A DNA stretch of 64,000 bases from Escherichia phage KKP 3715, in the sequence record OR067834.1; one strand, 5' to 3'. The position numbers and the translations under genes are program-made. Positions 2,088-62,829 of this stretch are shown here, piece after piece. Numbering within the stretch: the first letter of the stretch is position 1; the number at the start of each line of letters is the position of its first letter. The notes beneath the pieces were generated by a model. That model saw only the letters and a program-made list of their open reading frames with translations, was not told the DNA's origin and searched no databases.

Positions 2088-2100
2088 AATTGCATACCTC

Positions 2101-5016: not shown

Positions 5017-5022
5017 GGAACC

Positions 5023-5187
5023 ATGCAGAAACTATCGGAAGTATACCGTGGCTTGGCACTAAGTACCTTGAAGGGTACTGGCTCAGTCACGGATGACAGA
5101 CTAGGTATTGAACCAGATAGTAAGCCGGAGATACTAGCTGCTATTAATGAAGGACTGGTACGACTGCATAGTCGTTTCCCCCCTTAA
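5023..5187 (+). CDS. small ORF (54 aa); may be the N-terminal part of the next gene via +1 frameshift, or an independent small gene
   Basis: ATG 5023 with GAGGAA Shine-Dalgarno 4 nt upstream; ends at TAA 5185-5187 just after a C6 run (5178-5183). Not in the ORF track. Confidence 0.3.
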   Translation: MQKLSEVYRGLALSTLKGTGSVTDDRLGIEPDSKPEILAAINEGLVRLHSRFPP

Positions 5188-5734
5188 GACAAATAGCTGC
5201 ATTGTGGAGATGAAGGAAGGACGTACTGATTATCCCCTTCAATCCAAATATGCTTACTCCAGATTTACTAAGCCTACTCTTGAGGTTCAGTATCCATATA
5301 TCATGGATGGCTTCATGAAGCCTTTCCAGGATGACGTTATTAAAATCTTAAATGTGTTTGATAACTCTGGGAATCGACGTAGACTGAACGACGACTCAGA
5401 CCCTCATGCTATTTTCACCCCACGGCCTGATACTATTCAGTGTATGCGACCTCGACACTTCGAGGCACTTAACGTAACGTATCAAGCTAAGCACCCAGTA
5501 CTTACGGGTGATGAAGAACAGGAAGTTGATTTAGCTGATACGTTAATGACGGCACTTCATAACTGGGTGGGTTATCGTTACCACACTGGTTTGAATACTC
5601 CTGAAGCTAACGCTAAAGCAGCAGAGTATCTGCAAACGTATGAAAGCATCTGTGGTGAGGTTGTTGATTACGACCTGGCTAATGGAAGTATTTCAATTAC
5701 CGAAACTAAATTTGAACAACGAGGATGGCGATGA
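5147..5734 (+). CDS. hypothetical virion protein
   Basis: 195-aa ORF; its frame is open from 5138; weak RBS at the 5147 ATG. Confidence 0.6.
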   Translation: MKDWYDCIVVSPLKTNSCIVEMKEGRTDYPLQSKYAYSRFTKPTLEVQYPYIMDGFMKPFQDDVIKILNVFDNSGNRRRLNDDSDPHAIFTPRPDTIQCMRPRHFEALNVTYQAKHPVLTGDEEQEVDLADTLMTALHNWVGYRYHTGLNTPEANAKAAEYLQTYESICGEVVDYDLANGSISITETKFEQRGWR

Positions 5735-8457: not shown

Positions 8458-8463
8458 TACTTA

Positions 8464-8481
8464 GCCCCTCTTTGGAGGGGC
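8464..8481 (+). terminator. hairpin GCCCCTC-TTTG-GAGGGGC after tailspike 1 (weak U-tract)
   Basis: Read from sequence; followed by ATTACTT. Confidence 0.35.
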
Positions 8482-8507
8482 ATTACTTAGAATAAAACGA
8501 GGTATAT

Positions 8508-10496
8508 ATGAAAGACATGTTTGCTCAAGGTGGTTCTGGTTCTGCTGGAATCAAGACCAATAAACAAGCAATTGCTCGTGCTTGTAACGTTAAAGTAAGT
8601 GAAGTCATTTATAGCAATGACACCATCACTACTCTTGATGGTAAAAAGGTTATCTATGATAAACCTAATCAGTATATCTGGGGCTTACCTTCTGGTATCC
8701 CATCTGGGGCTACCGTTGTAACTGTGACTGGGGCTACTCTGGTTTATAACCCTGGCAATATCTCAGTTACATTGGAATTAGTTCCTAATTCTTCTGTTAA
8801 CCAATTAAAACAAGATTTACTATCTTCAAACGGTTTTTCTTTAGTTGGTGGAATTAGGGGTATTGTTAAAACCTCTGAAGTAGCTAACTTAGAAGATGCT
8901 ATTACGTTAGCATTAGAAAATGATGCTGATGTTCTAGTAGATAATATTCAGAACATTACAGTACCAATCCGTAAATCCTTGAATGGAAAAGATATTAAAA
9001 TAATTTCTACACCTAGTGGTTGGATTAACTTTACCCCAACGGATGCTAACACTTACTATCAGGTTCTGACTTTTGACGGAACTGGGGTGGAAAGCGTAAC
9101 CACTAAAGTGAAGATAGATGGTGGTAAAGTTCGCGGCGTAGGTCGGGCTGTTGTAGGGATTACGGTAAATAACGTTTACGCACATTATGAAAGCTCAGAG
9201 ATGAGGAACATCAGCGCATGTGTAAACACAGTTACCGCCCAGATTCACCTGTGTTATGGGGCTAAATATTATAACGTATTTCAACAACTTGCTTCTCAAG
9301 ACTGGAGTGCTGGAGTGTATGGCTATGGTACTGTACCAATTGATTGTGAAACTGTATTAGTAGAAGCCAATACATTTGGTTTGTCCGGTCAACCATTAGA
9401 CCGTCATGCAGTTTATTGTTCTAGTCAAGCTGATGGAACAGGTGTAGTTCGTAATGCATTTGTCTGTAATAACACAGCAGTAATGCGTGACTACACCACG
9501 GAAACAGCAGAGACAACAAGTGAACGCTGCTTTAAATTCATTGGTACAAACCGGGTACATCTTCACCATAATACATTACGTGGGGGATATGGGTTCTGTC
9601 TGATAACACTTCATAAATTCCAAACCATGGAAAACATCCGCATCGATAACAATAGAGCAAGAACTTACGCAAGCGGAATTATTATCGCAGGACAGAACGA
9701 AGCCTCGGCAGAACCTGATGCAACATGGTACGTTGATGAATTACAGATGGCTAATAACCATTTCCGTATGAGAGCTACGGTAGCTGGAACAAGTAATGGG
9801 GCTGAGTGGCGCAACACGTATCGTGTTAGTGACGTTGGCAGTTCGTATGTAAACGAGGCATTTGCAACGGTGAATGCGTTAACTGTTTACTACCCAAAAA
9901 CAGACCGCATACGAACTGAGAGTTTCCGTTCCGAATCTTGCTACTATCAAGGGTTCCAAAATATCACCCGAGAAATGGCCCCCACTTACACCTATATAGA
10001 TATTACATGCCGTAATGCTGTTAACACTCAGAATCCCCTGAATGCATCCGGCGCTACTGTCCAGAATGTAAAAGTACGGAGTCTTGATAACACGGCGATG
10101 TGGAAGGATTACACGGCTACCGCAATTGTAGGGTTCTCATACTACGACCCTAGCTTTCTTAAATTCATAAGATGTGCAGGAGCTGGATTGTGGGAAGATG
10201 AAGATGGGTATCCAGTAGTTGGATTATCTACTGGCAGGCCCACTAGACTTCGTGAAGGTCTTAAATTCTACCAAACAGATTTAGCCACAATGATTACTTG
10301 GACCGGTTCTAACTGGGTTCTCCAGTCAGCAGGATATACTGGGATAATTAAATCAGGAACAACTCCACAAATAAACTCTGTGAACAAGGCATTACTTGGT
10401 TATGGACATGTTATATATAACACCGACACCAAAAAACCGGCTTTCTTTGATCAATTAGCTCAGTCATGGAAGTACGCAGACGGTAGCGCAATGTAA
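8508..10496 (+). CDS. second tailspike / tail fibre protein
   Basis: 662 aa; N-terminal residues ~20-96 are clearly homologous to residues ~313-386 of tailspike 1; remainder assigned as beta-helix-like from composition only. Confidence 0.75.
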   Translation: MKDMFAQGGSGSAGIKTNKQAIARACNVKVSEVIYSNDTITTLDGKKVIYDKPNQYIWGLPSGIPSGATVVTVTGATLVYNPGNISVTLELVPNSSVNQLKQDLLSSNGFSLVGGIRGIVKTSEVANLEDAITLALENDADVLVDNIQNITVPIRKSLNGKDIKIISTPSGWINFTPTDANTYYQVLTFDGTGVESVTTKVKIDGGKVRGVGRAVVGITVNNVYAHYESSEMRNISACVNTVTAQIHLCYGAKYYNVFQQLASQDWSAGVYGYGTVPIDCETVLVEANTFGLSGQPLDRHAVYCSSQADGTGVVRNAFVCNNTAVMRDYTTETAETTSERCFKFIGTNRVHLHHNTLRGGYGFCLITLHKFQTMENIRIDNNRARTYASGIIIAGQNEASAEPDATWYVDELQMANNHFRMRATVAGTSNGAEWRNTYRVSDVGSSYVNEAFATVNALTVYYPKTDRIRTESFRSESCYYQGFQNITREMAPTYTYIDITCRNAVNTQNPLNASGATVQNVKVRSLDNTAMWKDYTATAIVGFSYYDPSFLKFIRCAGAGLWEDEDGYPVVGLSTGRPTRLREGLKFYQTDLATMITWTGSNWVLQSAGYTGIIKSGTTPQINSVNKALLGYGHVIYNTDTKKPAFFDQLAQSWKYADGSAM

Positions 10497-10502
10497 AACT
10501 AA

Positions 10503-10524
10503 CCCCGCTCAGGCGGGGTTTTTT
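10503..10524 (+). terminator. intrinsic terminator (CCCCGC-TCAG-GCGGGG then TTTTTT)
   Basis: GC-rich stem and T6 tract directly after the tailspike 2 stop. Confidence 0.75.
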
Positions 10525-10527
10525 GTT

Positions 10528-10929
10528 GTGCCACAAACAAATCATTGGGTAGACTGTTTCAGTCAATTACGACTTAACCAACCTGAGAAAGTCCCTATGG
10601 GAAATGAACCAGATAACGTAACTCTAGCCAGACTCGAAGAGAGACTGAGAAACATTTTCGAAAACCAAACCCGTGAATCGAGGGAAAGGGAGAAAATGGA
10701 AGAGTCTATTAAAAAGCTAAGTGAGTCTATGGGCGACCTTAGTACCCGACTTAAACGGGTAGAAGAGAGCATCACTAAGTCTGAACCTACCATCGAAGAG
10801 TTCATCACTATTAAACATAAGGTTGCTGGTGCTGGAATTTTTGGTAAGTGGGTGTGGGCTGGAGCAGGTGCAATCATTGGTGTATTGGCTGCTGCAAGAC
10901 GGGAGATATTCGCATGGTTTGCAGGCTAA
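10528..10929 (+). CDS. membrane-anchored coiled-coil protein (C-terminal TM); possible lysis regulator
   Basis: 133 aa; charged helical N-terminus, C-terminal hydrophobic GAGIFGKWVWAGAGAIIGVLAA; likely starts at an internal Met (MGNEPDN). Confidence 0.5.
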   Translation: MPQTNHWVDCFSQLRLNQPEKVPMGNEPDNVTLARLEERLRNIFENQTRESREREKMEESIKKLSESMGDLSTRLKRVEESITKSEPTIEEFITIKHKVAGAGIFGKWVWAGAGAIIGVLAAARREIFAWFAG

Positions 10930-11174
10930 AAAGAAAGATAGGACTAGTACCTAACTGGAAGAAGTCCTGGAAGTGGGCATCTGTTCAGATTAGCACGTTT
11001 GGATTAATTCTGTTTTCCGTCGTAGATATTATCCAACCAATGCTAACAGGGCTACCTCGCCACATCCTGGAAGATATTCCACATGGTTCCAGCATTACAA
11101 TCGCACTATTTGCCTTAAACATTGTAGGCAGACTAATACGATTCCATCCAAAGGAAGATTCTCATGAAAGCTAA
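10914..11174 (+). CDS. holin candidate (two predicted TM helices)
   Basis: ATG 10914 with GGGAGA RBS; 86 aa with two hydrophobic segments (ISTFGLILFSVVDII and SSITIALFALNIVG); sits directly upstream of and overlapping the endolysin. Track lists it as 10848..11174. Confidence 0.5.
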   Translation: MVCRLKRKIGLVPNWKKSWKWASVQISTFGLILFSVVDIIQPMLTGLPRHILEDIPHGSSITIALFALNIVGRLIRFHPKEDSHES

Positions 11175-11799
11175 ACAGAAACTTGCTGCAAAAGGTGGTG
11201 CAGTGGGAGGAGTTGTCGCTGCTATTCTGGGGGCAGTGTTCTATATGGAAGGGGGGTACGTAAACAATCCTCGTGACCCAGGTGGGGAAACTAATCATGG
11301 TATTACTCAATCAGTAGCTAAGTCTCACAAAGAAGTTCTGGCTACTGAGTATGGTTGGGATGGTTCCATGAAGGGTTTATCTAAAGAGATGGCTGCTGAG
11401 ATATACATAGATGACTACGTACTTAAGCCTAACTTCGTAGCTTTCGCTGATATATCTCCTGCTGTAACACACAAACTGGTTGATGCTGGTGTTAACACAG
11501 GTGTAACCAGACCAGCTAAGTGGTTGCAGCAATCTCTTAATGAAATGTCCCGTGATGGCAAAGACTACCCTAAAATACAAGTTGATGGTAAAGTCGGTGC
11601 AGGTACTGTTAATGCATATAAAGCATTACAGAAAAAACGAGGCAAAGTTGCAGCATGTCAGGTAATGATTAAGTTACTTGATGCTAAACAACTGAACCAC
11701 TACACCTCATTGAACATGCCAGACTTTACGTATGGTTGGGTAGCTAACCGAATTGGTAATGTACCACTGGAGGCATGTAATGAAGATGCTAATCTCTAA
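11164..11799 (+). CDS. endolysin, GH108-type N-acetylmuramidase with C-terminal peptidoglycan-binding region; N-terminal signal-anchor-release-like segment
   Basis: 211 aa; GH108 signature EGGYVNNPRDPGGETNHGITQ; N-terminal Gly/Ala-rich weakly hydrophobic stretch GGAVGGVVAAILGAVFYM. Confidence 0.85.
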   Translation: MKAKQKLAAKGGAVGGVVAAILGAVFYMEGGYVNNPRDPGGETNHGITQSVAKSHKEVLATEYGWDGSMKGLSKEMAAEIYIDDYVLKPNFVAFADISPAVTHKLVDAGVNTGVTRPAKWLQQSLNEMSRDGKDYPKIQVDGKVGAGTVNAYKALQKKRGKVAACQVMIKLLDAKQLNHYTSLNMPDFTYGWVANRIGNVPLEACNEDANL

Positions 11800-12280
11800 A
11801 GGTTGGCCTTATCTTCTGGTGGTGGTCCTCGGGGCCACCATTTACTTTTGGGGCAATTCCAATGGGCAGTCTACTGTTCAAAAGAGGTGGGATGCCCAAA
11901 AGGTTGAAGACCTGAAGGCAACACAAAAACTACAGGACAAATACAATGCTCTCCAAAGAAACCATAGTTATGAAGTCGGGTTACTTACTTCCCGGTTGCA
12001 GACGGCTGAGAGTAATTACGCAAGCGAGCTTGCTCGCGTTAGCAGTGATTACGACAGCCGGATGCAACAGTCTGAAAGACGAGCATCGGTATATAAACGT
12101 CAAGCCGAAACCGGAACCCTTGAGTGCAGAAGTCTTGCAAGCCATGCAGCCAGACTCGACAACAGTCTTGAAGAAGGCAGACGTTTGGTTGAAGAACTCC
12201 GGGCAACTGTTAGACTCCGTGACAACCAACTAATTGAGTTGGGTAAGCAAATTCAGGCTGACCGTAAACTTTTTGAATAG
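11753..12280 (+). CDS. i-spanin (Rz-like)
   Basis: N-terminal TM ([16 protein letters not shown]) then a coiled-coil-like periplasmic domain; likely true start ATG 11780; directly downstream of the endolysin. Confidence 0.7.
11970..12233 (+). CDS. o-spanin (Rz1-like lipoprotein) embedded in the +1 frame of the i-spanin gene
   Basis: Track ORF 11946..12233; from Met 11970 the product has a signal peptide with lipobox-like ITTAG|C and a short Pro-containing mature domain. Confidence 0.65.
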   Translation: MKSGYLLPGCRRLRVITQASLLALAVITTAGCNSLKDEHRYINVKPKPEPLSAEVLQAMQPDSTTVLKKADVWLKNSGQLLDSVTTN

Positions 12281-30100: not shown

Positions 30101-33100
30101 ATATGACCTGCGTGAGGGTGCTACCGATGACCTGTTACGTGCAGGTGCTGAACAGATTGAACGTAACCTACGTAACATTGCTCTGGGTGTAGATATTCGT
30201 CACAAAGTGATGAACCAGGTACAGACCACTGTTGACCAGATGGCTGCTGTAGGTGCTCCTTATGTGAACAACGGTAAAATCTCTCTGGAAGGTCTGACTG
30301 TAGACCAGCAAGTAGCTAAGCTAAACGAACTATTTGATGCTGAATTAAATAAGCGTCGTGATGCAGTACGTGCTGCTAAAGCAGAACCTGTTAAAGAAGT
30401 GCCAGCTATGGAACAAGTTGGTCGTGTACTGAAGTCTGGTGTACGTCTGTTGTCTAATACTGCTATCACTAAGCTGGCTAAAGAGATGACTTCTGAACAG
30501 CAAGCAGTATTGAAAGAAGTACAGAAATCCCTTGCTGCTAAAGACTACAAGGTTGTTTACGGTACTCCTGCTCAACTGGATGCTTATGCTATTGAGAAGA
30601 ACATTACTCGCCCAGCACCGGAAGATATTGAAGCTGCCGAAGCTGGTAATGCATATGGCTGGACTAACTTTGATGATAAAACCATCTACTTAGTTACCCC
30701 TTCCTTAGAGACTCTGGTTCATGAATTAGTACATGCTTCTACTTTTGAATCTGTACTGGCTCACTATGAGGGTACTCCTAACGAAGCAGTCCAGAACATC
30801 GAAGATCTTATGAACCAGTTCCGTACTCTGGATGTTAAGAACGAATCCCCGGCAGTACGTGAAGCATATGCTGATGCACTCAATACCATTAACGGTCACT
30901 TGTCTAATGGCTTTATTGAACCTGCAATGGCTAAAGCTGCTGCACTGAATGAGTACATGGCATGGGGCTTAACCAATCGTGAACTGATTGGTAAGCAGAA
31001 GAAGACCACTGCACTGAAAACTATGGTTCAGTCTGTGTATGAAGCAATCAAGCGTCTGGTATTTGGTCGCAAGAAAGCACCTGCTAATGCAGATGATATG
31101 TTCTCCGGATTACTGTTTAACTCTTCAGTAGTTATGCGTGGGCAGGCTCCTACTGCTGCTGTATCCAAAGACACTACCTTGTTCCATAACAAAGCATATG
31201 GAGATAATACCCGTCTTGAAGAATTGGGGCAGACCTTTGATAAGCTGATTACTAACTACATTGGTTCTGAACCAGTGCAGCAAGTAATTCGTAAAGGTAA
31301 GTTCTCTGATGCAGTAGTGAATGCAACTAAAGTAACTCGTGATGTTCAGGCTTATGGCTTTACCATGAATATGCAGGAACAGCGATTGTTCACTAATATC
31401 GTTGCTGCTTTGGCTACTGAAGCTGCTATTAGTCCGGCTGCTCTTTCTCGTGCACAGGAATACTATGCACACGTTACTAAGAACCTGACCGTTGAATCAT
31501 TCATGGCTGACCCGGATAGTACTAACCCTGCTGACCGTTACTATGCTCAACAGAAGTTCGATACCATCATGGGTGCTAACAATATTGAGTTTGATGCACA
31601 AGGTCGTTCTTCCTTACTGCCTACCTTTGTTGGTCTGGCAATGGTAAGTGAAGAGGTGCGTAACGTACTGGCTAACATTCCTGTTATGAAAGCAGATAAG
31701 AAATCTGGTAATACCGTTGATGCAATGCTGACTAACATTGGTACTGCTGCAATGTCTAGCCTGAACGCTCGTGTAGCAGGTGATACCAAAGCTACTAACG
31801 TACAGGAAGGTATGGATGCACTGGCTCAGACAATCATGCAGACAAGTCTTAATGCACAGTCATTCTATGATTCCGTTGCTACTCCTAGTGGTAATGCTAT
31901 TGACCGTGCTAACCAGTATCTGGTGGATTCTATTGATGCACTGTCTACTCGTGCTTTAGAAAGTGCTCGTGAAGTTGCAGCTAATACCAAGAACCCATTG
32001 GTTAAGGGTGCTGCTCATGCTGCACAATTGGTGGCTGCTATTGCTACTGAGAAGAACGGTGCAATCGTGGCAGAAGGTGTTATGGCTGCAATGAACCAGG
32101 GCAAGGTATGGCAACCTTTCCACGACTTGGTTAATGACTTAACTGGTCGTACTAAGAGCAATGCTTCTGTATACGATTTGATTAAAGCAGTTCGTGCACA
32201 GGTACAGGCTGACCGTCAGCAGTTCCGTGAACATCTGCCTACCACTATCGCATCTAAGTTCAGCCGTAAGCTGACTAACGATGAGTGGAAAGCAATGCAC
32301 ACCGGTATGGGTAAAACTGACTTAGCTGTTCTGCGTGACACTATGTCTCTGGCTGAAATCCGTGACCTGCTGTCTGACCAGAAGATTGTTGACCGTGAAG
32401 TGAATAAGCTGGAAGCAGATTTGCAGAAACAAGCTGGTCGTAACTGGCCTCTGATTAACCGTAAATCTAAGCAACTGGCTCAGTACATGATTAACGGTAC
32501 GGTCGGTAATAACCTGCTGCGTAATGCTACTGCAATCTCCCGTATGCTGGGTGAACGTCAGGCTGCTCGCTCTACTGTAGATGTAGCTCAACTGGATAAA
32601 CTGATTACCCTGTATGCACTGGAAGCAATGAACAAGTCCGACCGTGAGACGTTATCTTCACTGGCTCAGACAGAAGTTGAGGGAATGGACTTTGCTACTT
32701 CTTACCTGGTTGGACAACGTAAAGATGAAATGGCTAAAGCCAAGTCTGATATGCGTGCAACCCTGAACCAGTACAAAGGGCATATTCCTAGTGAGACTAA
32801 ACAGGGTGTTAATCTGATTGTTGCTGAAGATAGCCAGTTTGCTGATTTGATTGAGAAGTCCTATGTACGTCTGGGTACTTATCAAGGTAGCTCTGCTAAC
32901 CGTGGTCCGGCACGTAGCTATTACTTTGCACCAGTACAGGCACAGGCTCCTTTCTCACAGGGTATCCTACAGAACGTTCGTAATACTGCTGGTGGTGTAG
33001 ACCTCGGCACAGGCTTTACGATGGGTTCCATGGTAGCTGGTCGTATTACTGACAAGCCTTCCGTAGACCGTATCACTAAAGCACTGGCTCGTGGCGAACG

Positions 33101-34523
33101 TGGTAATGAACCACTGCTGCCTGTATATGACGATAAAGGTAATGTAGTTGCCTATGAGCAATCCATTGACCCTAATATGCTGAAGCACATTGAGGGTGAG
33201 AACCATCTTGCCCGTGCAATCGGCGTATGGCGTGGTCGTCAGGTGGAAGAAGCTAAGGCTCAGCGTTTCAACGATATGCTGATTGAGAACCTGCATAGCA
33301 TGTATGAGAACGACATTAAGATGTCTGCCTCTAATAAGTCCCAGTACGTTAACCTTCTTGGTTCTAAATTGGACCCAGTAACTGCTGATGCTCTTAAGCT
33401 AATGAATAGTGAAACCCGTCAGAAAGCAGAGAGTTTGTTCGGTGAGGGTGAACTGTGGGTACGTCGTGACATGCTTAATGATGCACTTGGTTATCGTGCA
33501 GCTTCTGTAGGTGATGCCTGGTCTGGTAATTCTCGTTGGTCTCCGGAAACATTGGATACCTTTAAGAAAGCTATGCTGGGTGTATTTGGTAACCGTGCCT
33601 ATAAGTACACAATGGGTGGTGAGAACCTGGTTCAAAACTTAGTTAAAGAAGCTAAGACTCTGATTGTAGTTAAGTCAGTAGTCGTACCTGCTGTTAACTT
33701 CTTAGCTAACCTTTACCAGATGGTTGCCCGTGGTGTACCGGTTAAGAACATTGCTAAGAGCATTCCACAGAAGACTGCTGAGATTAACCAGTACCTTAAA
33801 TCACGTCTGCGTCAGGTAGATGCAGAAGCAGAATTACGTGCAGCTACTAACCCGAACCAGATTCGTAAACTTAAGGCTGAGATTCAGTCCATTACTGATA
33901 GCCATAAGCGTATGAGTATCTGGCCTCTGTTGGAAGCCGGTGAGTTCTCTTCAATTGCAGACGCTGGTATTGGTCGTGATGACATCCTGATTACTGAAGG
34001 CAAACTCCACGAATACATGGATAAGCTGGCAGATAAGTTACCTAAGTCTGTGCGTACTGCCGGTCGTTATGCACTTATTACTAAGGATACTGCTCTGTTC
34101 CAGGGTATCCAGAAGACGGTTGAGTACTCTGACTTTATCGCTAAAGCAATCATCTATGATGAACTGACTCAGCGTAAAGGTAAGACTCGTGAAGAAGCAC
34201 TTGGGCGTGTAACGGAAGAGTTCGTTAACTATGACCGTTTACCTGGTCGCTTCCGTGGGTACATGGAAAGTGTTGGTTTAATGTGGTTCTACAACTTTAA
34301 GATTCGTTCAGCTAAGGTTGCTGTGTCCATGATTCGTAATAACCCTGTACATGCAACAATGGCGATGCTGGCTCCAACTCCTACCATGTTTGGTAACGTT
34401 GGCTTACCTATTCAGGACAACATCTTTAGTATTGCTGCTAAGGGTAGTCTGGATTACTCATGGGGCTTTGGTCAGGGTCTTCGTGCTCACAACCTGAACC
34501 CTTGGATGAACCTGGTAAACTAA
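24153..34523 (+). CDS. virion-encapsidated RNA polymerase (giant, N4 vRNAP-like)
   Basis: 3456-aa ORF, the hallmark of N4-like phages. Track start is TTG at 24153; ATG at 24171 with AGGAAA RBS is the more likely start. Confidence 0.9.
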   Translation: MNRKHAMSTFDRLAGFADSITNAKQVDVSTATSQKQAAQGQSPFQLTPENAYNLQTGRVGNLGIGAFEPDSLQADFTQASPLEIINKYGNEQGLQILNSRANAADVVRQDLSKQRTNAEAFGDTLSGVGLGVANTLGGIAALGTGLVNDNAGATIASGMDWLNEGVHNLQSDALNATRKVVQNQNQISAQKNQKLYEEDIKNGESDLVASLSRIGRDAFDSVANTLDNGMAASDGLSEGVGSLFTGGPLIRGVSALGKVMVGGDKAVKGITLAAGLGSRPAQVALSAGRVAAPAIAIGGMEAGGAYQQTASEIMKMSHQELASKSPVYQQHIADGLSPDEARRQTASETGIIAAGLTAPVAAATGPLVSRFELNPLKVGSLAGAGSNMLRETVEEGIQSGFGQYAQNRAIKENVDASRDVLKGVGEQAGLGALYGFGSAGVAQAPGATVKAAGAAAGPALRTTLAGASLVGKTLAKAASPLTNILVQRGEEVAKRNEQASPVADATVNAAAQEAAAQAEQAQATVQEAVDAMDISPEEKAAATQYAADLTQAMKFDPVELEQANPTIREAVSGSTNRVEAIQKMADLVNTAEDPNVQMEAAIQMYDNIMSMDSFINRDPGALANLEQGSPAAAIVDQFSGLMANVQNTPKVLRAFRAIHSMIQEQAEAGKLKATEEANQAQANNIAMAADVSPEVLDADSVNMVLKHASEGKITLGNRQRAALQSAAALLQGAREFDAKAEELGLRPQDIVSKQIKTDESRSNEGQYSALQHAKRIRSAYNSGNFDLASAYLSDFMKFAQHMQNKVGALNEHLISGNADKNKSVHYQALSPSREWVRSRTGLGVNPYDTKSVKFAQQVGLEAKTVADIANALATAYPELNVSHVKVTSLDSRLNKPAAQVVKEFRQGGLDATQSQQTNEPVNQVDESPAPVQEDTTTVQPKAKPVVENKTAPTKETSPKTEEVSTTKSETVEATPTNEDTIQEVAKTKTEMETVFPVYNNEKTPNQFLKAFTLPEEPKSRTVGSESPLADIKQALSSVARFEAFTQKENNVLTGDVIKRYQDLMDFGETLKTTLSERLAKFLANKNVGKRFAEGTEANRWVGGKLLNIVERDGDTFKFNDQLLETAVLAGLQWRLTATQNAAIKDMKDVAAITGVEASLLPEGILAEFENAQTLVEATNSLAQKIESYWGLNRNPNAPLGYTKGIPMAMATEILSSLIEMGEVKESMLDVSEIDPDSNKTVGLYTIEKLDDNDAINKFPTAIEEAVLLEPEEKMYFDDDIPSVAQTQLRNPAVKNTPEQKAALKAEQATEFRVHMPMVNFYEALGRDNILELMGAGTLNPDLLNKNTAKSLEGKNLSVSMAYDSLFGVINQIREQENGLDTPIHYGYNMTRVGRMQMLGKNNPQSSKLVREAILPTFSTIDLSNENSQAFSDFQLGLAQALGIKVHKMSREAMSENLTKALEGNLKPAVDMMVEFDKAGYLPTDAVDILKTSLGDNKSFVALMALMEYARYLNSDDRANFTTPLYVEADGVTNGPINAMVLMTGGKFTPDWIKNTAKGGLFFGRAGKTMNEHCSIDDNVDLYEASTNGLQQALNELRTTYRNNVPVMSQMNHLQKLMDLFIKDFNLNEDGTLDLKRGIAKNPLTITIYGSGARGIAGKMVSAITDTIYERFSDVLQARAADPSISPAMAMFGKEAASEADAQAMLDTFLTSMEALTGNVPVMRKGELSIQQVDGALTGKLDPQKFTVSGNALKNLQENMLHLFVEPMRTGIRNTVGEGLMHSTENLQKATQIQSLVLQDMFQQAVQAKLAEKEKDPTWKKGDFLTQKELNEIQESLSPLAPMIETGSQTFYIAGSENTDVANQVLATNLDDRMRVPMSIYAPSQAGVAGIPFMTIGTGDGMMMQTLSTMKGAPKNTLKIFDGMNIGISDITDASRKANEAVYTSWQGNPIKNVYDSYAKFMKNVDFSKLSDETKQAIAKSALEYDLREGATDDLLRAGAEQIERNLRNIALGVDIRHKVMNQVQTTVDQMAAVGAPYVNNGKISLEGLTVDQQVAKLNELFDAELNKRRDAVRAAKAEPVKEVPAMEQVGRVLKSGVRLLSNTAITKLAKEMTSEQQAVLKEVQKSLAAKDYKVVYGTPAQLDAYAIEKNITRPAPEDIEAAEAGNAYGWTNFDDKTIYLVTPSLETLVHELVHASTFESVLAHYEGTPNEAVQNIEDLMNQFRTLDVKNESPAVREAYADALNTINGHLSNGFIEPAMAKAAALNEYMAWGLTNRELIGKQKKTTALKTMVQSVYEAIKRLVFGRKKAPANADDMFSGLLFNSSVVMRGQAPTAAVSKDTTLFHNKAYGDNTRLEELGQTFDKLITNYIGSEPVQQVIRKGKFSDAVVNATKVTRDVQAYGFTMNMQEQRLFTNIVAALATEAAISPAALSRAQEYYAHVTKNLTVESFMADPDSTNPADRYYAQQKFDTIMGANNIEFDAQGRSSLLPTFVGLAMVSEEVRNVLANIPVMKADKKSGNTVDAMLTNIGTAAMSSLNARVAGDTKATNVQEGMDALAQTIMQTSLNAQSFYDSVATPSGNAIDRANQYLVDSIDALSTRALESAREVAANTKNPLVKGAAHAAQLVAAIATEKNGAIVAEGVMAAMNQGKVWQPFHDLVNDLTGRTKSNASVYDLIKAVRAQVQADRQQFREHLPTTIASKFSRKLTNDEWKAMHTGMGKTDLAVLRDTMSLAEIRDLLSDQKIVDREVNKLEADLQKQAGRNWPLINRKSKQLAQYMINGTVGNNLLRNATAISRMLGERQAARSTVDVAQLDKLITLYALEAMNKSDRETLSSLAQTEVEGMDFATSYLVGQRKDEMAKAKSDMRATLNQYKGHIPSETKQGVNLIVAEDSQFADLIEKSYVRLGTYQGSSANRGPARSYYFAPVQAQAPFSQGILQNVRNTAGGVDLGTGFTMGSMVAGRITDKPSVDRITKALARGERGNEPLLPVYDDKGNVVAYEQSIDPNMLKHIEGENHLARAIGVWRGRQVEEAKAQRFNDMLIENLHSMYENDIKMSASNKSQYVNLLGSKLDPVTADALKLMNSETRQKAESLFGEGELWVRRDMLNDALGYRAASVGDAWSGNSRWSPETLDTFKKAMLGVFGNRAYKYTMGGENLVQNLVKEAKTLIVVKSVVVPAVNFLANLYQMVARGVPVKNIAKSIPQKTAEINQYLKSRLRQVDAEAELRAATNPNQIRKLKAEIQSITDSHKRMSIWPLLEAGEFSSIADAGIGRDDILITEGKLHEYMDKLADKLPKSVRTAGRYALITKDTALFQGIQKTVEYSDFIAKAIIYDELTQRKGKTREEALGRVTEEFVNYDRLPGRFRGYMESVGLMWFYNFKIRSAKVAVSMIRNNPVHATMAMLAPTPTMFGNVGLPIQDNIFSIAAKGSLDYSWGFGQGLRAHNLNPWMNLVN

Positions 34524-34532
34524 AATAAAAAA

Positions 34533-34550
34533 GCCCCTCTAATGAGGGGC
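34533..34550. terminator. bidirectional intrinsic terminator (GCCCCTC-TAAT-GAGGGGC) between convergent genes
   Basis: A-tract upstream and T-rich tract downstream on the plus strand give U-tracts in both orientations. Confidence 0.7.
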
Positions 34551-34557
34551 TTCTATT

Positions 34558-34890
34558 TTACTTCTTAGCTACAAGAATTTTTTTACCAGTCTTGATTACA
34601 TAATCAATCTTGTTGGCTTCAAAATGAATATCTACAAAATCAGCATGTACACTTTGATAAGTACCATTGTTTCTACGAATACCTAACTTCTTACAGAGAA
34701 CCATTGCAATTCCTGTATCTGGTACGGCAATCCAATTACTACCATCAATTTGTACATCACAGCCAAAGGTTAAACGGTGTCTTGCTTTACGATGTACATG
34801 CAATCCACCAATACGCTTTGGTATAAGCTGACCTTTCTTAAAGAGTTCCATAGTGCCCCTAGAATCTTTTGATTCATTTAGTAAGAACAT
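34558..34890 (-). CDS. hypothetical protein
   Basis: 110-aa ORF, probably starting at an internal Met (MELFKKG); basic, GGLHVHRKARH segment. Confidence 0.45.
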   Translation of the reverse strand: MFLLNESKDSRGTMELFKKGQLIPKRIGGLHVHRKARHRLTFGCDVQIDGSNWIAVPDTGIAMVLCKKLGIRRNNGTYQSVHADFVDIHFEANKIDYVIKTGKKILVAKK

Positions 34891-34903
34891 ACAGATATGA
34901 TAA

Positions 34904-34933
34904 AGCCCTCACTAGGAGGGCTTGTTTTGTTTT
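34904..34933 (+). terminator. second plus-oriented terminator hairpin (AGCCCTC-ACTAG-GAGGGCT then TGTTTTGTTTT)
   Basis: Read from sequence; lies 350 nt after the vRNAP terminator and would block late read-through into the minus-strand genes. Confidence 0.5.
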
Positions 34934-35003
34934 GGCTTCTAGAGCCTTACCACATGTCGGGTAGTTCTGTACCTTTCGGTAAAAACTACCTTACCCTTAT
35001 TTG

Positions 35004-57060: not shown

Positions 57061-57548
57061 TAGTATTTACTACCTCTTCTATACCAAGGGTAATGGTGGG
57101 TAGTGCTCTTGCCTTTGAACACATCCTTGGTATAAGGATTCTTTTGTATTTGAGCCAGGTAAAGATGCATGTCGTCATAGCAAGGACTAAGCCAGAACTT
57201 ATCTATGATACGATCTACCTTAGCTTTCAGATGAGGTTCAGGAGGGATGTATGGGAAAACATTAAATGATCTACTAGTCCATCCTTTCTGAATAGCAGCT
57301 TGCATTGCTGCGTAAACATCGGGACCAATTCCATTTTCTTCTACTTGGTCATGTATAGTTTTACCTAAAGTAAGCATTGCAGTTTGTTCCAGTTTACTTA
57401 AGTCCAGTCCATATAAGATAGACTTACCATTTTGTCTGTTTGACATAAGAGTACCTGTAATTAAAAAAGCCCACTGGTTAGGTGGGCTTGGATTAGGAGA
57501 TGGATAAGCAATGAGCTGGAAGTAACTTCCACAAGCATCACTATACAA
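57060..57548 (-). CDS. hypothetical protein
   Basis: 162-aa ORF; a terminator inside the annotated N-terminus suggests the true start is an internal Met near 57446. Confidence 0.5.
   Translation of the reverse strand: MYSDACGSYFQLIAYPSPNPSPPNQWAFLITGTLMSNRQNGKSILYGLDLSKLEQTAMLTLGKTIHDQVEENGIGPDVYAAMQAAIQKGWTSRSFNVFPYIPPEPHLKAKVDRIIDKFWLSPCYDDMHLYLAQIQKNPYTKDVFKGKSTTHHYPWYRRGSKY
57461..57488 (-). terminator. intrinsic terminator (AGCCCAC...GTGGGCT, then UUUUUAA on the minus strand)
   Basis: Read from sequence. Confidence 0.6.
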
Positions 57549-57563: not shown

Positions 57564-57842
57564 TTACTCTGCTTTACTGCCACCATTGGTTTGAACAACA
57601 GTTACATTTGTAACTTGGTTCTGACCTTTGTTGGACAGTGACCAAATCAGTGCTACTACCCAGAAGACTAAAGACCAGCCTAATACGATATTGAGTACAC
57701 CAATGCCCCACTTAGAGGCATGGCCTCGTGCAAAAGCAATAATGGTAGGGATAAGGTATACAGCTAGTGCAAATAACAGAACAAGGATTGCTGCTAAAGA
57801 TTCCATGATGGTTCCTATGTGGGGTTGAGTTAGTTTCTTCAC
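57564..57842 (-). CDS. superinfection-immunity-like small membrane protein
   Basis: 92 aa; LIPTIIAFARGHASKWGIGVLNIVLGWSLVFWVVALIWSL resembles the Imm_superinfect (PF14373-type) motif as I recall it. Confidence 0.6.
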   Translation of the reverse strand: MKKLTQPHIGTIMESLAAILVLLFALAVYLIPTIIAFARGHASKWGIGVLNIVLGWSLVFWVVALIWSLSNKGQNQVTNVTVVQTNGGSKAE

Positions 57843-57879: not shown

Positions 57880-58089
57880 TTACTCAGCATCTTTGCTTGC
57901 AGGAGCAAGAGCTTTCTTCAGGTAATTACGTACCGAACGATAGGTTTCTTTGGTGTCCATAGCGCTATCATTTACAAATACGATACGTGCACAGTCAGAC
58001 AGCGGAATCTGTTCTACTGCAATTACATTTGCAGCATTAATGGTTAAGCGTACATCTGAGGTTGCATGAGTTACTTGAAATACTGACAT
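57880..58089 (-). CDS. hypothetical small protein
   Basis: 69-aa ORF. Confidence 0.4.
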   Translation of the reverse strand: MSVFQVTHATSDVRLTINAANVIAVEQIPLSDCARIVFVNDSAMDTKETYRSVRNYLKKALAPASKDAE

Positions 58090-58119
58090 ACTGTTTCCTT
58101 GATTAATCTGGATAGCCTT

Positions 58120-58572
58120 TTATTTTGAAGGTCTAGCAGATACTGGTTTGTTTGGTTGACACTGGTACTTACCTTCATAACGACAATGCTCTGCTATCTC
58201 TTCGAAGATAACCTGAGCTATGCCAGTACCAGCTTTTATTGTAACAGGCAAAACACCCGAATAACGAAGCTCAAGAGTAAGGAAACCTTTCCACCCTGGT
58301 TCGATATTGGTTGTCATGCTTGCATCAATCCCCTTTCTGGCCCATGTACTCTTATTAAGTACACGGCCCATAAGGTTTGGTGGTACGTCAAACTCTTCTA
58401 TGGCTGACGCTAGTACGAATCGACGCCCCAAGAACATAGTCACATCCTGCTTAATACGAATATCGTATCCGCATTCTGTAAGACCCCAAGAGAAACCATT
58501 ACTGGTTTGCTTAGAGTCCACCATGTTCTTTATAGGAGCCAGTTCTAATAAACGACTGCGGTTAATAATCAT
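58120..58572 (-). CDS. dCTP deaminase / dUTPase-fold protein
   Basis: 150 aa; motifs GLTECGYDIRI, NKSTWARKGI, EPGWKGFLTLEL and GTGIAQVIF typical of the dCD/DUT family. Confidence 0.7.
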   Translation of the reverse strand: MIINRSRLLELAPIKNMVDSKQTSNGFSWGLTECGYDIRIKQDVTMFLGRRFVLASAIEEFDVPPNLMGRVLNKSTWARKGIDASMTTNIEPGWKGFLTLELRYSGVLPVTIKAGTGIAQVIFEEIAEHCRYEGKYQCQPNKPVSARPSK

Positions 58573-59978
58573 TTCATTCCTTTAGGGATATGAACTACCT
58601 CCCCAAAAGGTACGGTAGCATTGGGATTATTCAGAACACACCATATGATAGGAATATCAAATGGTAATTCTTCCATAGGGCGAACATACATATCAGAGAA
58701 TATGATTGCAGCGGTTGGCTTATTCTTAATAATCCAATCACGTACCGGTACAAGGTTTGTACCACCACGACCGGTAATCTTAATCTCTTCAAAAGTATCT
58801 TCTTCAGTGATGTCTATTTCTTCTTGGATAATATCGTCGAAGGTAATAAGAGTCATCTTCTTAGGATTGAACTGGCTCTTGACGTAGGCAACCTCTGAGT
58901 TAAAACGCAGAGAGTCAGCACTACTAATAGAACCGGATACATCTTCAAAGTAGGCTAAGTGCCGTAAACGTCCTTCATCATCTTCCAGTGATGGTAGATA
59001 GATGTCAGTGAATCGACGATTAGGTCTGGCCCACGTATAGTGTGTATCATCAATGTCGGTAAAGAAATTCAGCAGGACTTCCTGCCATGGAACCACTGGT
59101 TTTAGGAATTGGGTAATAACCTCTTCCATACGACCAGCACCTTTACCGGGCATCATTCCACCAGCCATCTTCTGGCTTTGCATTGCACGTACTACGTTGT
59201 TGACAACAGCACCCTGGGACTGCCCCGAAGAGGGAGCTTTCATGTCGCCAGCAAGACCTGCTCCAGCACCCCCTGACGGCTTCTGCCTTTTCTGAGGGTT
59301 CTTCATCAGGTCATCGTAGATGTCTTCTTCGACCCATCCTTTATATTGAGGGTCTTTGCAAATGCCTTCGTCGATACCAGTGAACTTGTAACCATCTTCC
59401 TCTAACTGAAGGTTGATGAAGTGGTCACATGCTTGGTTCCATACTTCCGGGTCACGGCTTCCACAACGGATGCCATGCAGATATGCTACATGCCAGAGTT
59501 CGTGCATTAGCACTGTTTCTCTTGCATCAGGGCACATCCAAATAAAGAAGTCTGGGTTGAAATGGAGTTCTATCCCATCGGTACATGCAGTGGGACAGTC
59601 TTCACGTTTCCATGAGAACTTAAGGCTACACAGCAATGAACCAAAAAACGCAGCAGACTTGCCTAGAAAGGCTTGGGCCTGAATACGGTCATACTCACGC
59701 ATGAGTTGTTCATCACTGAGTGTGTGCTGAGGTATCTGGTTCATGTTGTGATTATCCGTGAATGTAACGAGAGATGTTGGCAGCAGCCTTACGCCATTCA
59801 GGGGTAGCCTGAATTTCTGGTAATGCTTTGCCCACTGTACGGAAGTACAGAATCTTATGAGTGAACGTTTTAAAGCGTTCAATGTACTGAAGTACATCAA
59901 CGAAATTATCTTCAGTGGTCTTGTTAGCCAGATGGTTAACGGTAGCCCAGCACAGGTTATTATCTTCCGGCAGTGCAC
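58569..59978 (-). CDS. vWA-domain protein with N-terminal HExxH metallopeptidase-like region
   Basis: Likely true start ATG at 59744 (MNQIPQ), 7 nt after the ATPase stop; HExxH VLMHELWHVAYLHG; MIDAS-like FEDVSGSIS. Confidence 0.7.
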   Translation of the reverse strand: MHCRKIITCAGLPLTIWLTRPLKIISLMYFSTLNALKRSLIRFCTSVQWAKHYQKFRLPLNGVRLLPTSLVTFTDNHNMNQIPQHTLSDEQLMREYDRIQAQAFLGKSAAFFGSLLCSLKFSWKREDCPTACTDGIELHFNPDFFIWMCPDARETVLMHELWHVAYLHGIRCGSRDPEVWNQACDHFINLQLEEDGYKFTGIDEGICKDPQYKGWVEEDIYDDLMKNPQKRQKPSGGAGAGLAGDMKAPSSGQSQGAVVNNVVRAMQSQKMAGGMMPGKGAGRMEEVITQFLKPVVPWQEVLLNFFTDIDDTHYTWARPNRRFTDIYLPSLEDDEGRLRHLAYFEDVSGSISSADSLRFNSEVAYVKSQFNPKKMTLITFDDIIQEEIDITEEDTFEEIKITGRGGTNLVPVRDWIIKNKPTAAIIFSDMYVRPMEELPFDIPIIWCVLNNPNATVPFGEVVHIPKGMK

Positions 59979-60804
59979 AGCCCAAAGGGTCTTTGACTAC
60001 CTTCTCAATCGTAATCATACGATTATATACCTGGGTGAACTGAACAAACTCTACAGCCTTACCTGGTGTAACGAAACCACTGTAGTACAGGGAATCCTCG
60101 TCAGGCAAAGCACCTTCTGGTTGGTTCTTGAGGTCTTTATTAATGAAGTCCCAAGTACGAGGGCAACAGAATGTTTTGTTCTTATGAGCAGGATCGAAGT
60201 CGTGCAAATAACCCGGGTTAGCATGTAAGAATGCAACCAGACGCTCATCCCATTCTTGTGGAATCATTACGTCTTCAACAAAGATGTCGAAGTTAAGTTC
60301 CATTTCGAAGTGGACGACACGGGACTGCATTGCAGTACCCAGTGGGTTAACGATAGCACGGTCAGTAGCTTTGTTACCGGCACAGATAATCATCACATTA
60401 GGGTGAAGTTTCTTCTGACCAGTCATACGGTCGAGAATCAGTTTGTATGCAGCAGCTACTACTTCTTTCTTAGCTGAGTTGAACTCATCAAGGAACAGGA
60501 GCCAGCCATTATAACCTTCTGGTACTTCATCTCCCTCAATAGGGAATAAGTCAGCGAAAGGGATAAACTCTGCTCGGTCACCATTACGGAATGGTAGACC
60601 AGACAAGTCTTCCGGGGCAGAAGTAGACAGACGATGGTCAATCAGCTTCATACCAAATTCTTCTGCAACAGAACGAATAATTGCAGACTTACCCATGCCA
60701 GGTGATGAAGTCAGGAACGGTACGTTACCTGCTTGCAAGGCACGGATAATAAAGTTACGGGCTTGGCGTGTATTACATACAGTCAAGGAGTCAATGCTCG
60801 CCAT
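59752..60804 (-). CDS. MoxR-like AAA+ ATPase
   Basis: 350 aa; Walker A LTSSPGMGKSAIIRS; Walker B LLFLDEFNSA; partner of the downstream vWA protein. Confidence 0.75.
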   Translation of the reverse strand: MASIDSLTVCNTRQARNFIIRALQAGNVPFLTSSPGMGKSAIIRSVAEEFGMKLIDHRLSTSAPEDLSGLPFRNGDRAEFIPFADLFPIEGDEVPEGYNGWLLFLDEFNSAKKEVVAAAYKLILDRMTGQKKLHPNVMIICAGNKATDRAIVNPLGTAMQSRVVHFEMELNFDIFVEDVMIPQEWDERLVAFLHANPGYLHDFDPAHKNKTFCCPRTWDFINKDLKNQPEGALPDEDSLYYSGFVTPGKAVEFVQFTQVYNRMITIEKVVKDPLGCALPEDNNLCWATVNHLANKTTEDNFVDVLQYIERFKTFTHKILYFRTVGKALPEIQATPEWRKAAANISRYIHG

Positions 60805-60838
60805 TTACTTACTCTCCTAAAGTTAATGGAATTACTAA

Positions 60839-61165
60839 TTAAGATTTAACGCATGGATACGCTGTATCAATCGCTAACAGAACCATGTCTGATGGTATTT
60901 TTACTGCATTAACCTTTCGGTCATACAGAATAATAGAGGCCACTCTGTCAAAAATGTGCCCTAACTTCATATCGTCAGGTACACAGTTCTTTCCTGCTTC
61001 CACCCCCATAGTAACCATGCCCATGAAGTAACCCTGATTCACAAAGTTTGCATTATTGGCTTTGTAGTCAGCAGCAGCTTCCAGCAAGGTTGCACGACTA
61101 GATGCTTGAGCACCGAATGACAGAACTGATAAAGCTACTACAGCAACAGTAATTAAAGTTTTCAT
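60839..61165 (-). CDS. secreted/periplasmic small protein (signal peptide)
   Basis: 108 aa; N-terminus MKTLITVAVVALSVLSFGAQASS. Confidence 0.5.
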   Translation of the reverse strand: MKTLITVAVVALSVLSFGAQASSRATLLEAAADYKANNANFVNQGYFMGMVTMGVEAGKNCVPDDMKLGHIFDRVASIILYDRKVNAVKIPSDMVLLAIDTAYPCVKS

Positions 61166-61351
61166 TTAGTTACCTTTTAACTCATTGAGTTGAAGTACTC
61201 CGGTAGGGGTTAATGACCACCCAAGACCAGCATTGAACTGTACTAAGCCCAGCTTCTTAAGAGACTGTGCGGTTTTATTATTACGGTTGCTGGTGGCAGA
61301 ACCACCTTGAACCATGCGAAGGAAAATTGCTTGGGACTGAGTAAGTTTCAT
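61166..61351 (-). CDS. hypothetical small protein
   Basis: 61-aa ORF. Confidence 0.4.
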   Translation of the reverse strand: MKLTQSQAIFLRMVQGGSATSNRNNKTAQSLKKLGLVQFNAGLGWSLTPTGVLQLNELKGN

Positions 61352-61912: not shown

Positions 61913-61945
61913 GTCAAAAAAAGACCCCCCTTCAATAGGGAGGTC
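61913..61945 (-). terminator. intrinsic terminator (GACCCCCC/GGGAGGTC stem, then U8 tract on the minus strand)
   Basis: Read from sequence; preceded by a second hairpin GGGGTT-TAT-AACCCC at 61966-61980 directly after the stop of the upstream gene. Confidence 0.65.
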
Positions 61946-61995: not shown

Positions 61996-62829
61996 TTACT
62001 CTGCAACAGTAACAGCGATGGTTACGTCTACAGTACCATTGGTAACTACTACAGAAGTAGCATCACCAGCAGCCACTGGTTTAACTGTCAGTACGTTACC
62101 AGCAATGGTAGCTGTAGCACGGGCGGAATCCGGAGCAGTCTTGATAGATAAAGTACCAACAGACGCTCCAACAGGCATAGCAGTAATGGTTACAGTCTTA
62201 CCATCTGTGGTATCGTCAGCAACGGACAGAGCCAGTGAAGCAGGAGTAGCTACCAGTGAGCTTGCTTCGTAGTAGCCTACAGCCAGCAGTGAGGTATCTT
62301 CTACCGTGGTTCCATTAGCATCAGTAACAATCACTTTATAAGTACCAGCAGAAGCAGCTGTTACGTTACTAAGGGTCAGTGTTGCAGTAGCAGCAGATGC
62401 GTTATCACCAGAATCAATATCAGCGAATACTGCACCAGCAGTGTTAGCTTTGTATTGCCACTTATAAGTAAATGGTGCTTTACCGCCTGCTACATCAATG
62501 TGCCAGTTAATATCTTCACCTTCGATAGTGGAGATTACACGAGGCAGTTTGGTAGCAATAGTTAGTCGTGGAGTAGCTTGCATGTCGATAGTGACCGACT
62601 GCATATCCACGATGTTGTCAGGCCAGAAGCCTTCTTCAGCAGGGTTTTTAGCAGAGCGTTTATACAACAGGTCACGAACACCGTGAAAGATAACTAAGCT
62701 ATCGGGGTAAGTGGCATCTGGATGTACAAAAGTACCTACTTCCACAGAACCACCTGGAACACTACCACCTGAATCAAGCACGGTAGCAACGTTGGTAGTT
62801 TTATTAAACGCAATCTTTAAGGTTGGCAT
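61996..62829 (-). CDS. Ig-like domain capsid decoration protein (N4 gp17-like)
   Basis: 277 aa; Ig-like segment PFTYKWQYKANTAGAVF...TLTLSNVTAASAGTYKVIVTD and a C-terminal Ala/Thr/Val-rich repeat region; followed by tandem terminator hairpins. Confidence 0.65.
   Translation of the reverse strand: MPTLKIAFNKTTNVATVLDSGGSVPGGSVEVGTFVHPDATYPDSLVIFHGVRDLLYKRSAKNPAEEGFWPDNIVDMQSVTIDMQATPRLTIATKLPRVISTIEGEDINWHIDVAGGKAPFTYKWQYKANTAGAVFADIDSGDNASAATATLTLSNVTAASAGTYKVIVTDANGTTVEDTSLLAVGYYEASSLVATPASLALSVADDTTDGKTVTITAMPVGASVGTLSIKTAPDSARATATIAGNVLTVKPVAAGDATSVVVTNGTVDVTIAVTVAE

Follow-up and report, generated by a model that had tools for sequence, protein, structure and literature searches.

Gene pair and its identity

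Two adjacent minus-strand genes were analyzed in Escherichia phage KKP 3715 (sequence record OR067834.1), of which a stretch of 64,000 nucleotides, here called the window, was available. They encode an AAA+ ATPase and a protein in which a putative zinc peptidase is joined to a vWA domain. An earlier note, made from the sequence alone, had described them as a MoxR-like ATPase with Walker A and B motifs, followed 7 nt later by a vWA protein having a motif similar to the MIDAS (metal ion-dependent adhesion site) and an N-terminal HELWH sequence in a possible metallopeptidase region. The gene pair is organized as follows:

59752..60804, minus strand: AAA+ ATPase gene, predicted orthologue of N4 gp24 (350 aa)
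59745..59751, minus strand: spacer TCACAAC from the ATPase stop to the gp25-like start (7 nt)
58569..59744, minus strand: putative zinc-peptidase-vWA fusion gene, predicted orthologue of N4 gp25 (391 aa; based on Pfam and on gp25 of RefSeq PhAPEC5)

The distance given in the earlier note was exact, with TCACAAC separating the TAA stop codon of the ATPase gene from the ATG at 59744. The ATPase gene has an AGGAG ribosome-binding site ahead of its ATG. The ATG at 59744 was taken as the start of the gp25-like gene, and gp25 of PhAPEC5 is annotated in RefSeq with the same start; the mechanical open reading frame (ORF) reaches 59978, from a GTG within the ATPase gene. Inspection of the 7-nt spacer revealed no clear Shine-Dalgarno sequence ahead of the gp25-like gene, so the translation of the two genes is likely to be coupled.

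A megablast search with positions 58000-61200 against phage records gave 95% identity to Escherichia phage vB_EcoP_PhAPEC5 (PhAPEC5) and to other members of Gamaleyavirus (Schitoviridae, N4-like). In the RefSeq record of PhAPEC5, the genes are labeled "ATPase, similar to N4 gp24" and "VWA-like domain-containing protein, similar to N4 gp25", and are flanked by the RNAP2 gene and by the dCTP deaminase, gp27, Imm-like, gp28, gp29 and ThyX genes. The window pair is 95-99% identical to the PhAPEC5 and SP5M copies, and the gp25-like protein is about 62% identical to proteins of the N4 group (P0020, 62%). These comparisons place the phage in Gamaleyavirus, among the N4-like coliphages, and identify the pair as the predicted orthologues of gp24 and gp25 of N4.

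The pair is already known in this sense: gp24 and gp25 are long-annotated core genes of N4, and the combination of a peptidase-vWA protein with a MoxR ATPase was previously described in phages. The 14 core genes of N4-like phages include gp24 ("Unknown") and gp25 ("vWFA domain"), both of which are middle transcripts in N4 itself (PMC4193335). From the earliest comparative studies onward, the two have been listed without a known function (PMC4193335, PMC2784036). The second gene was named "Metallopeptidase" in the genome paper of KP8 (PMC6950046) and "pfam13203" in that of P_ort11 (PMC6992544), and for jumbo phages, a MoxR-vWA pair with an N-terminal metallopeptidase was described by Iyer et al. 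in 2021 (PMC7824862). The literature found on the pair consists of annotation tables and one comparative-genomics proposal.

Putative peptidase domain of the gp25-like protein

The following parts were recognized in the gp25-like protein:

59340..59696, minus strand: putative M48-like zincin domain, residues ~17-135 (profile search of the PDB and predicted topology)
59475..59504, minus strand: putative zinc-site motif HELWHVAYLH (H81, E82, H85, H90), with HELWH itself at 59490-59504
59424..59426, minus strand: D107 of the WNxACD motif, candidate third zinc ligand (N103, A105 and D107 do not vary in any lineage)
58959..59339, minus strand: linker, residues 136-262 (Gly-rich low-confidence stretch, conserved helices and a PNRR…YLPS motif)
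58587..58958, minus strand: C-terminal vWA domain, residues 263-386
58929..58943, minus strand: MIDAS motif DVSGS (D268, S270, S272), completed by T329 at 58758-58760 and D351 at 58692-58694

The Pfam family DUF2201_N (PF13203, "putative metallopeptidase domain") matched residues 17-253 with 187.3 bits against a gathering threshold of 23.2 (E 5.5e-55). DUF2201 (PF09967, "VWA-like domain") matched residues 263-386 with 117.7 bits against 26.4 (E 4.5e-34). Each of the two families was matched by 36 of 36 gp25-like homologues. The HELWH sequence pointed out in the earlier note occupies residues 81-85, within the N-terminal domain and not at the extreme N-terminus.

To a search of 5.8 billion proteins, 990 gp25-like relatives responded, and motifs were counted in the best 120 of them, mostly found on contigs of ~70-77 kb, as in N4-like genomes. 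HExxH and the longer pattern HExxHxxxx[H/D] were each present in 120/120 of these, while HExxH arose by chance in 1.4% of shuffles of the gp25-like protein; the conservation check proposed in the earlier note thus came out in favor of the motif. The last position of the pattern corresponds to H90, which stands five residues after H85 and is H or D in all of the best 120. Residue conservation was assessed in an alignment of 36 sequences with 48-86% identity, where H81, E82, H85 and D107 were invariant and H90 was nearly so. The same four residues, together with D268, S270, S272, T329 and D351 of the vWA domain, remained invariant at only 24-30% identity, in the jumbo phages Callisto and WPEC5 and in the rV5-like phage JeffSchatz.

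The AlphaFold (AF2) model of the gp25-like protein had a predicted local distance difference test score (pLDDT) of 79, and its N-terminal domain was confident. The predicted topology comprises strands 42-45, 53-55 and 59-62, then the helix bearing HExxH (72-87), then a helix (99-116) with N103 and D107. A profile of residues 1-135 built from 16 sequences, distant lineages included, was run against the PDB sequences. All nine matches at E up to 10 were zinc peptidases of the M48 family or minigluzincins, namely 3c37 (E 0.018), BepA (0.45-0.67), MJ1213 (0.95) and an HtpX homologue (0.99), and the alignment extended from the strand motif TAxTDG (NAFAxxGG in M48) to HExxHxxxxH. Weak Pfam matches to Peptidase_M48 (E 0.0011), Peptidase_M91 and PhageMetallopep were also found among the gp25-like homologues. 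Taken singly, the M48 matches are marginal; their unanimity and the weak Pfam matches weigh more in this sequence-based assignment.

We conclude that the N-terminal domain of the gp25-like protein is a putative zincin related to M48, with D107 as the likely third metal ligand. The metallopeptidase region supposed in the earlier note is supported by the Pfam family and the distant M48 match. The note had named an unconserved HExxH and a missing zincin fold as grounds for giving it up; HExxH proved to be invariant, and the domain resembles zincins both in sequence and in predicted topology.

vWA domain and linker of the gp25-like protein

Residues 263-386 form a compact alpha/beta domain in the AF2 model, with the Rossmann-like fold of vWA, and both structure searches made with this model returned vWA domains. 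The MIDAS motif, described in the earlier note as MIDAS-like, proved to be complete (D268-V-S270-G-S272, T329 and D351), and its five residues are invariant in the 36 sequences and in the three distant lineages. DxSxS occurred in 120/120 of the best 120 relatives, as against 7.5% of shuffles. The gp25-like protein is thereby classed as a vWA protein with a complete MIDAS site, for which the binding of metal and client is predicted.

A VPFG motif is conserved near the C-terminus, with F380 and G381 invariant. In NorD and CbbO, the C-terminus is important for contact with the ATPase (PMC13036017), and the conservation of VPFG fits a contact of this type, by analogy. The linker between the two domains had a pLDDT of 43-63 over much of residues 136-262 and was partly disordered at ~150-260 in the AF2 model; its residues W220, W238, R244, Y249 and P251 are invariant in the 36 sequences.

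PHROG 1314 labels the gp25-type protein "HNH endonuclease", as do numerous phage records of RefSeq and GenBank (among them SP5M, St11Ph5, Zuri, Piffle, WPEC5 and Vibrio D-series phages). That it is indeed an HNH endonuclease has practically no probability: the description of PHROG 1314 and the labels copied from it are all that speak for this, whereas no HNH family appeared among the Pfam matches of the 36 homologues at E up to 10, DUF2201_N and DUF2201 account for the full length of the protein, the C-terminal domain has a vWA fold and the N-terminal one aligns with M48 peptidases. The label was rejected on this domain evidence as a propagated annotation error.

ATPase

Three motifs of the gp24-like protein were located:

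60685..60699, minus strand: Walker A GMGKS, residues 36-40 (G38, K39 and S40 invariant in 34 homologues)
60592..60639, minus strand: signature DHRLSTSAPEDLSGLP, residues 56-71, between strand 2 and Walker B
60484..60498, minus strand: Walker B LFLDE, residues 103-107 (D106 and E107 invariant in 34 homologues)

Both Walker motifs named in the earlier note are thus present. N144 at the sensor 1 position and R162 at the arginine-finger position are invariant in the 34 homologues, as are K39, D106 and E107, and the gp24-like protein is placed in the midasin/dynein/MoxR branch as an AAA+ ATPase predicted to be catalytically intact. The only significant sequence match in the PDB was the AAA module of midasin (E 5.6e-5 with the single sequence, 3e-4 with a profile), and midasin, dynein, CbbQ and NorQ rank first among the closest solved folds.

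In Pfam, only the generic AAA family PF00004 was above threshold (E 2e-6). The ATPase remained below the gathering scores of AAA_5 (17.7 bits, cut-off 22) and bpMoxR (13.7 bits, cut-off 27). Below threshold, AAA_5 turned up in 31/34 homologues and AAA_3 in 6/34 (best E 0.006). The name "MoxR-like" used in the earlier note is fair at the level of the AAA+ clade and does not extend to membership in the Pfam families of MoxR proper, since the thresholds of AAA_5, AAA_3 and bpMoxR were not reached.

The ATPase signature (DHRLSTSxPxDxxGLP) is invariant at D56 to S62, P64, D66, G69, L70 and P71 in the 34 homologues, and was kept in the ATPase of the jumbo phage WPEC5. Residues 56-71 sit where clade-7 AAA+ proteins have the helix-2 insert, and the helix-2 insert of NorQ contacts the vWA finger of its partner (PMC13036017). 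In the AF2 model, short strands (72-73 and 77-78) lie within the invariant segment 56-100 at low confidence (pLDDT ~50), and strands 127-128 and 131-133 ahead of strand 137-144 are compatible with a pre-sensor-1 hairpin. The protein ends in a well-predicted helical domain (~215-342) with an invariant TFCxPRTW motif, for which no counterpart could be named.

Distribution and genomic context

A tblastn search recovered the gp25-like protein from 666 phage records and the ATPase from 806, and the same groups are represented in both: N4-like phages of all kinds, rV5-like phages and several lineages of jumbo phages. The genes stand next to each other in N4-like phages, in the jumbo phage WPEC5, whose ATPase is 28% identical to that of the window (E 9e-22), and in the jumbo phage pEa_SNUABM_12. 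One small ORF lies between them in LIT1. In rV5-like phages, both genes are present ~3 kb apart, and the ATPase is a separate "MoxR ATPase" gene. The pair is co-inherited across distant phage lineages.

In Escherichia phage JeffSchatz, a gene annotated as an "anti-sigma factor" (2924-3901) lies directly upstream of the DUF2201 homologue. This gene matched nothing in Pfam and is not similar to the gp24-type ATPase; it was rejected as the ATPase partner of the rV5-like homologue because it is not an ATPase. In related rV5-like records, the label "putative anti-sigma factor" is placed on the peptidase-vWA gene itself.

In N4-like phages, the pair is surrounded by genes of replication and nucleotide metabolism (RNAP2, dCTP deaminase, ThyX, helicase and DNA polymerase). 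In WPEC5 and pEa_SNUABM_12, the pair lies between structural genes and a thymidylate synthase gene. The gene context singles out no client.

A scan of contigs for DUF2201 returned only N4-like blocks, as the search patterns were too near the N4-like clade to reach bacterial or archaeal contexts. Two such blocks were observed in large bacterial contigs. Contig2 of Mesorhizobium yinganensis (727 kb) contains ATPase, DUF2201, dCTP deaminase and thymidylate synthase genes in N4-like order at 4854-12279, and the contig of a Roseococcus metagenome-assembled genome (297 kb) contains RNAP1, RNAP2, ATPase and DUF2201 genes in N4-like order at 127-7092. Since N4-like phages are regarded as strictly virulent, these blocks may be integrated or plasmid-like elements, or assembly chimeras.

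Transcription unit and neighboring genes in the window

Three further features delimit and complete the transcription unit:

58120..58572, minus strand: dCTP deaminase gene, predicted orthologue of N4 gp26 (Pfam DCD, E 2e-18)
61923..61945, minus strand: terminator-like hairpin upstream of the pair (9-bp stem, then a T run)
57467..57489, minus strand: terminator-like hairpin downstream of the pair

The stop codon of the gp25-like gene and the ATG of the dCTP deaminase gene overlap by 4 nt (ATGA), and the dCTP deaminase gene belongs to the same operon as the pair, which is a middle-phase operon. The order of the pair followed by dCTP deaminase also occurs in PhAPEC5, in KP8 and in the N4-like block of the Mesorhizobium contig. 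Terminators are annotated in PhAPEC5 at places equivalent to both hairpins, which are the probable 5′ and 3′ limits of the transcription unit.

Within this unit, a small membrane protein with a Pfam Imm_superinfect match (E 7.5e-17) is encoded at 57564-57842 on the minus strand. A 69-aa gp27-like ORF (57880-58089, minus strand) is situated two genes downstream of the gp25-like gene. It matched bpX6, which belongs to MoxR-vWA-beta-propeller ternary systems, below the threshold of 27 bits (18.6 bits, E 0.0017). This ORF had just 7 representatives in 1.8 billion proteins, none of them linked to ternary systems, and the match was treated as probably due to chance. The assignment of the pair to the MoxR-vWA ternary conflict systems (Kaur et al. 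2020) was likewise rejected, the operon containing no gene for VMAP, an inactive STAND, FtsH or a beta-propeller.

Directly upstream of the ATPase gene, a 108-aa ORF with a signal-peptide-like N-terminus (60839-61165, minus strand) showed a weak match to Rap1a, below the cut-off (E 0.004). Phage UE-M6 has a feature named "Tai4" (an immunity protein against a type VI secretion amidase) at the corresponding place. The alignments with many relatives cover only ~85% of the 58000-61200 query, which shows that a part of this region is variable. Farther upstream (61996-62829, minus strand), a 277-aa protein with Ig-like domains is encoded (Pfam Ig_3 and I-set, both below the cut-off); in PhAPEC5, its annotation is that of a Hoc-like head decoration protein. 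Its gene stands among early and middle genes, flanked by two terminators and far from the late structural module. Finally, the cumulative GC skew reaches its maximum near 34 kb, with a flip of sign at ~33000-35000, which fits the switch from plus- to minus-strand gene blocks in the N4-like genome.

Proposed function of the pair

We suggest the following scheme by analogy with NorQ-NorD, CbbQ-CbbO and midasin. For NorQD, a model of a finger inserted in the pore and of twisting was proposed, with the MIDAS as the client-binding site (PMC13036017). A hexamer of gp24 would dock the vWA domain of one gp25, whose MIDAS metal ion would capture an acidic residue of the client protein. ATP hydrolysis would then twist or pull the adaptor and so remodel the client, after which the tethered zinc peptidase could cleave the exposed client or the linker of gp25 itself. 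In this scheme, the pair would act inside the infected cell as a split, adaptor-guided AAA+ protease or chaperone. Such an ATP-driven machine, in which the vWA adaptor holds the client and the tethered zinc peptidase cuts it, is the reading that we consider the most likely one, with moderate probability. A client from the replication phase, of phage or host origin, is slightly favored for N4-like phages because of the timing and the neighboring genes; a structural protein, as in the published proposal, or a host factor may also serve as the client.

Several points weigh against this scheme. Experimental work on N4 gp24 and gp25 or on any DUF2201 protein was not found in the searchable literature. 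The two structure searches with the gp25-like model returned its vWA domain and not the N-terminal one, whose best M48 match by sequence had an E value of just 0.018, and no vWA "finger" for insertion into a pore was identified in the model. In addition, metal insertion or inhibitor release is the task of most characterized MoxR-vWA pairs, and a peptidase is not known to be used by any of them.

Among the alternatives, the pair might serve as a virion-assembly chaperone with a processing protease, folding, assembling or trimming structural proteins, which appears possible but rather doubtful. In WPEC5 and pEa_SNUABM_12, the pair stands directly downstream of genes annotated as structural, and N4 is not known to have a prohead protease. 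In N4-like phages, however, it belongs to a middle-phase replication block away from the late structural genes, while rV5-like and T4-related jumbo phages possess head proteases of their own. Virion assembly with proteolytic processing was proposed by Iyer et al. for the jumbo-phage architecture, and a MoxR-vWA pair serves tail development in the Acidianus two-tailed virus (PMC7824862); on the other side, the transcripts of N4 gp24 and gp25 are middle ones, and no homologue of either protein appears in the virion proteome table of RPP1/RLP1 (PMC4193335). A role in host take-over or counter-defence, in which the MIDAS would capture a host defence or replication factor for inactivation by the ATPase and the peptidase, seems unlikely. 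It would agree with the early-middle expression block, with the adjoining genes for the Imm superinfection-exclusion protein and the Tai4/Rap1a-like periplasmic protein, with the presence of the pair in several unrelated virulent lineages that share hosts rather than virion or replication machinery, and with the recurrence of MoxR-vWA modules in conflict systems (PMC7159879). Nevertheless, the genes belong to the core of every N4-like phage, from hosts such as E. coli to Roseobacter, with 50% identity and invariant sites, which speaks for a conserved target and against a quickly evolving conflict target; the pair also gave no match to PADLOC or anti-defence families and nothing meaningful in NCBIfam.

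The best-characterized MoxR-vWA pairs insert metals (PMC13036017), and the pair could be a factor of metal insertion or cofactor maturation similar to NorQD, CoxDE, CobST and BchID, with HExxH holding or delivering the metal. VWA_CoxE was weakly matched by 7/36 homologues, nucleotide-metabolism genes adjoin the pair in N4-like phages, and a thymidylate synthase gene is found near it in two jumbo lineages. Of these neighbors, dCTP deaminase and the flavin-dependent ThyX need no inserted metal center. Metal insertion without proteolysis is judged less likely, and on the whole improbable, because HExxH retains its general-base Glu without exception and because the similarity of the domain to M48 peptidases extends through the strand-helix core. 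As Pfam gave no matches to CobS/CobT or chelatases above noise, the reading of the pair as a cobaltochelatase was rejected.

Returning to the ATP-driven machine with a tethered peptidase, a bolder form of it may be put forward tentatively, with a low expectation that it holds in full. The pair would be an uncharacterized kind of split AAA+ protease, composed of a MoxR-type ring, a vWA-MIDAS adaptor that selects the client and an M48-like peptidase of its own, and would perform an essential, conserved cleavage or remodeling step of the replication phase in all N4-like phages, as well as in rV5-like phages and a number of jumbo phages. If this is true, the step could be, e.g., the activation or dismantling of a replication or nucleotide-metabolism complex.

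The earlier note had left the substrate as an open question; no functional study was found in the searchable literature. To the existing annotation, the window adds only confirmation and a flag on the "HNH endonuclease" label. Identification of the client of gp24/gp25 would close a gap in what is known about a major phage family used in therapy, and would show whether MoxR-vWA machines can couple to proteolysis. According to the searched literature, the DUF2201-type peptidase-vWA protein has no characterized example in any organism.

Comparison with known systems

The closest counterparts of the window pair are gp24 (AAA ATPase) and gp25 (vWFA protein) of N4 and all Schitoviridae, which are alike in gene order and lengths and show no difference of substance. 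The DUF2201_N + DUF2201 proteins of jumbo and rV5-like phages share with the window protein the two-domain architecture, the ATPase partner and the HExxH and MIDAS residues. They are longer (469-486 aa as against 391 aa) and have an extra insert ahead of the HExxH helix. Moreover, the jumbo-phage pair adjoins structural genes, whereas the N4-like pair adjoins replication genes.

With the M48 peptidases (HtpX, BepA and Ste24) and the minigluzincins, the gp25-like protein shares the strand motif ahead of the active-site helix and the HExxHxxxxH pattern, the similarity being marginal. In M48, the third ligand is Glu, whereas the candidate in the gp25-like protein is Asp107; the gp25-like domain is, in addition, soluble and fused to vWA.

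Among the MoxR-vWA systems, NorQ-NorD, CbbQ-CbbO and CoxD-CoxE have partner proteins without a peptidase domain and act on known enzymes, in contrast to the gp25-like protein with its putative zincin at the N-terminus. The gp24-like ATPase also differs from NorQ, CbbQ and CoxD in the additional C-terminal helical domain (~215-342). Midasin (Rea1) combines six AAA modules and a C-terminal MIDAS domain in one chain. Unlike gp24/gp25, it is a single giant eukaryotic polypeptide that works on pre-60S ribosomes and has no peptidase. FtsH and Lon are similar to the pair in concept, as ATP-driven unfoldases coupled to a protease, and FtsH also has an HExxH zinc site. However, they belong to other AAA+ clades, carry the motor and the protease in one chain and thread the substrate through the pore. 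For gp24/gp25, threading of the substrate into a proteolytic chamber is unlikely because the protease sits on a separate vWA adaptor.

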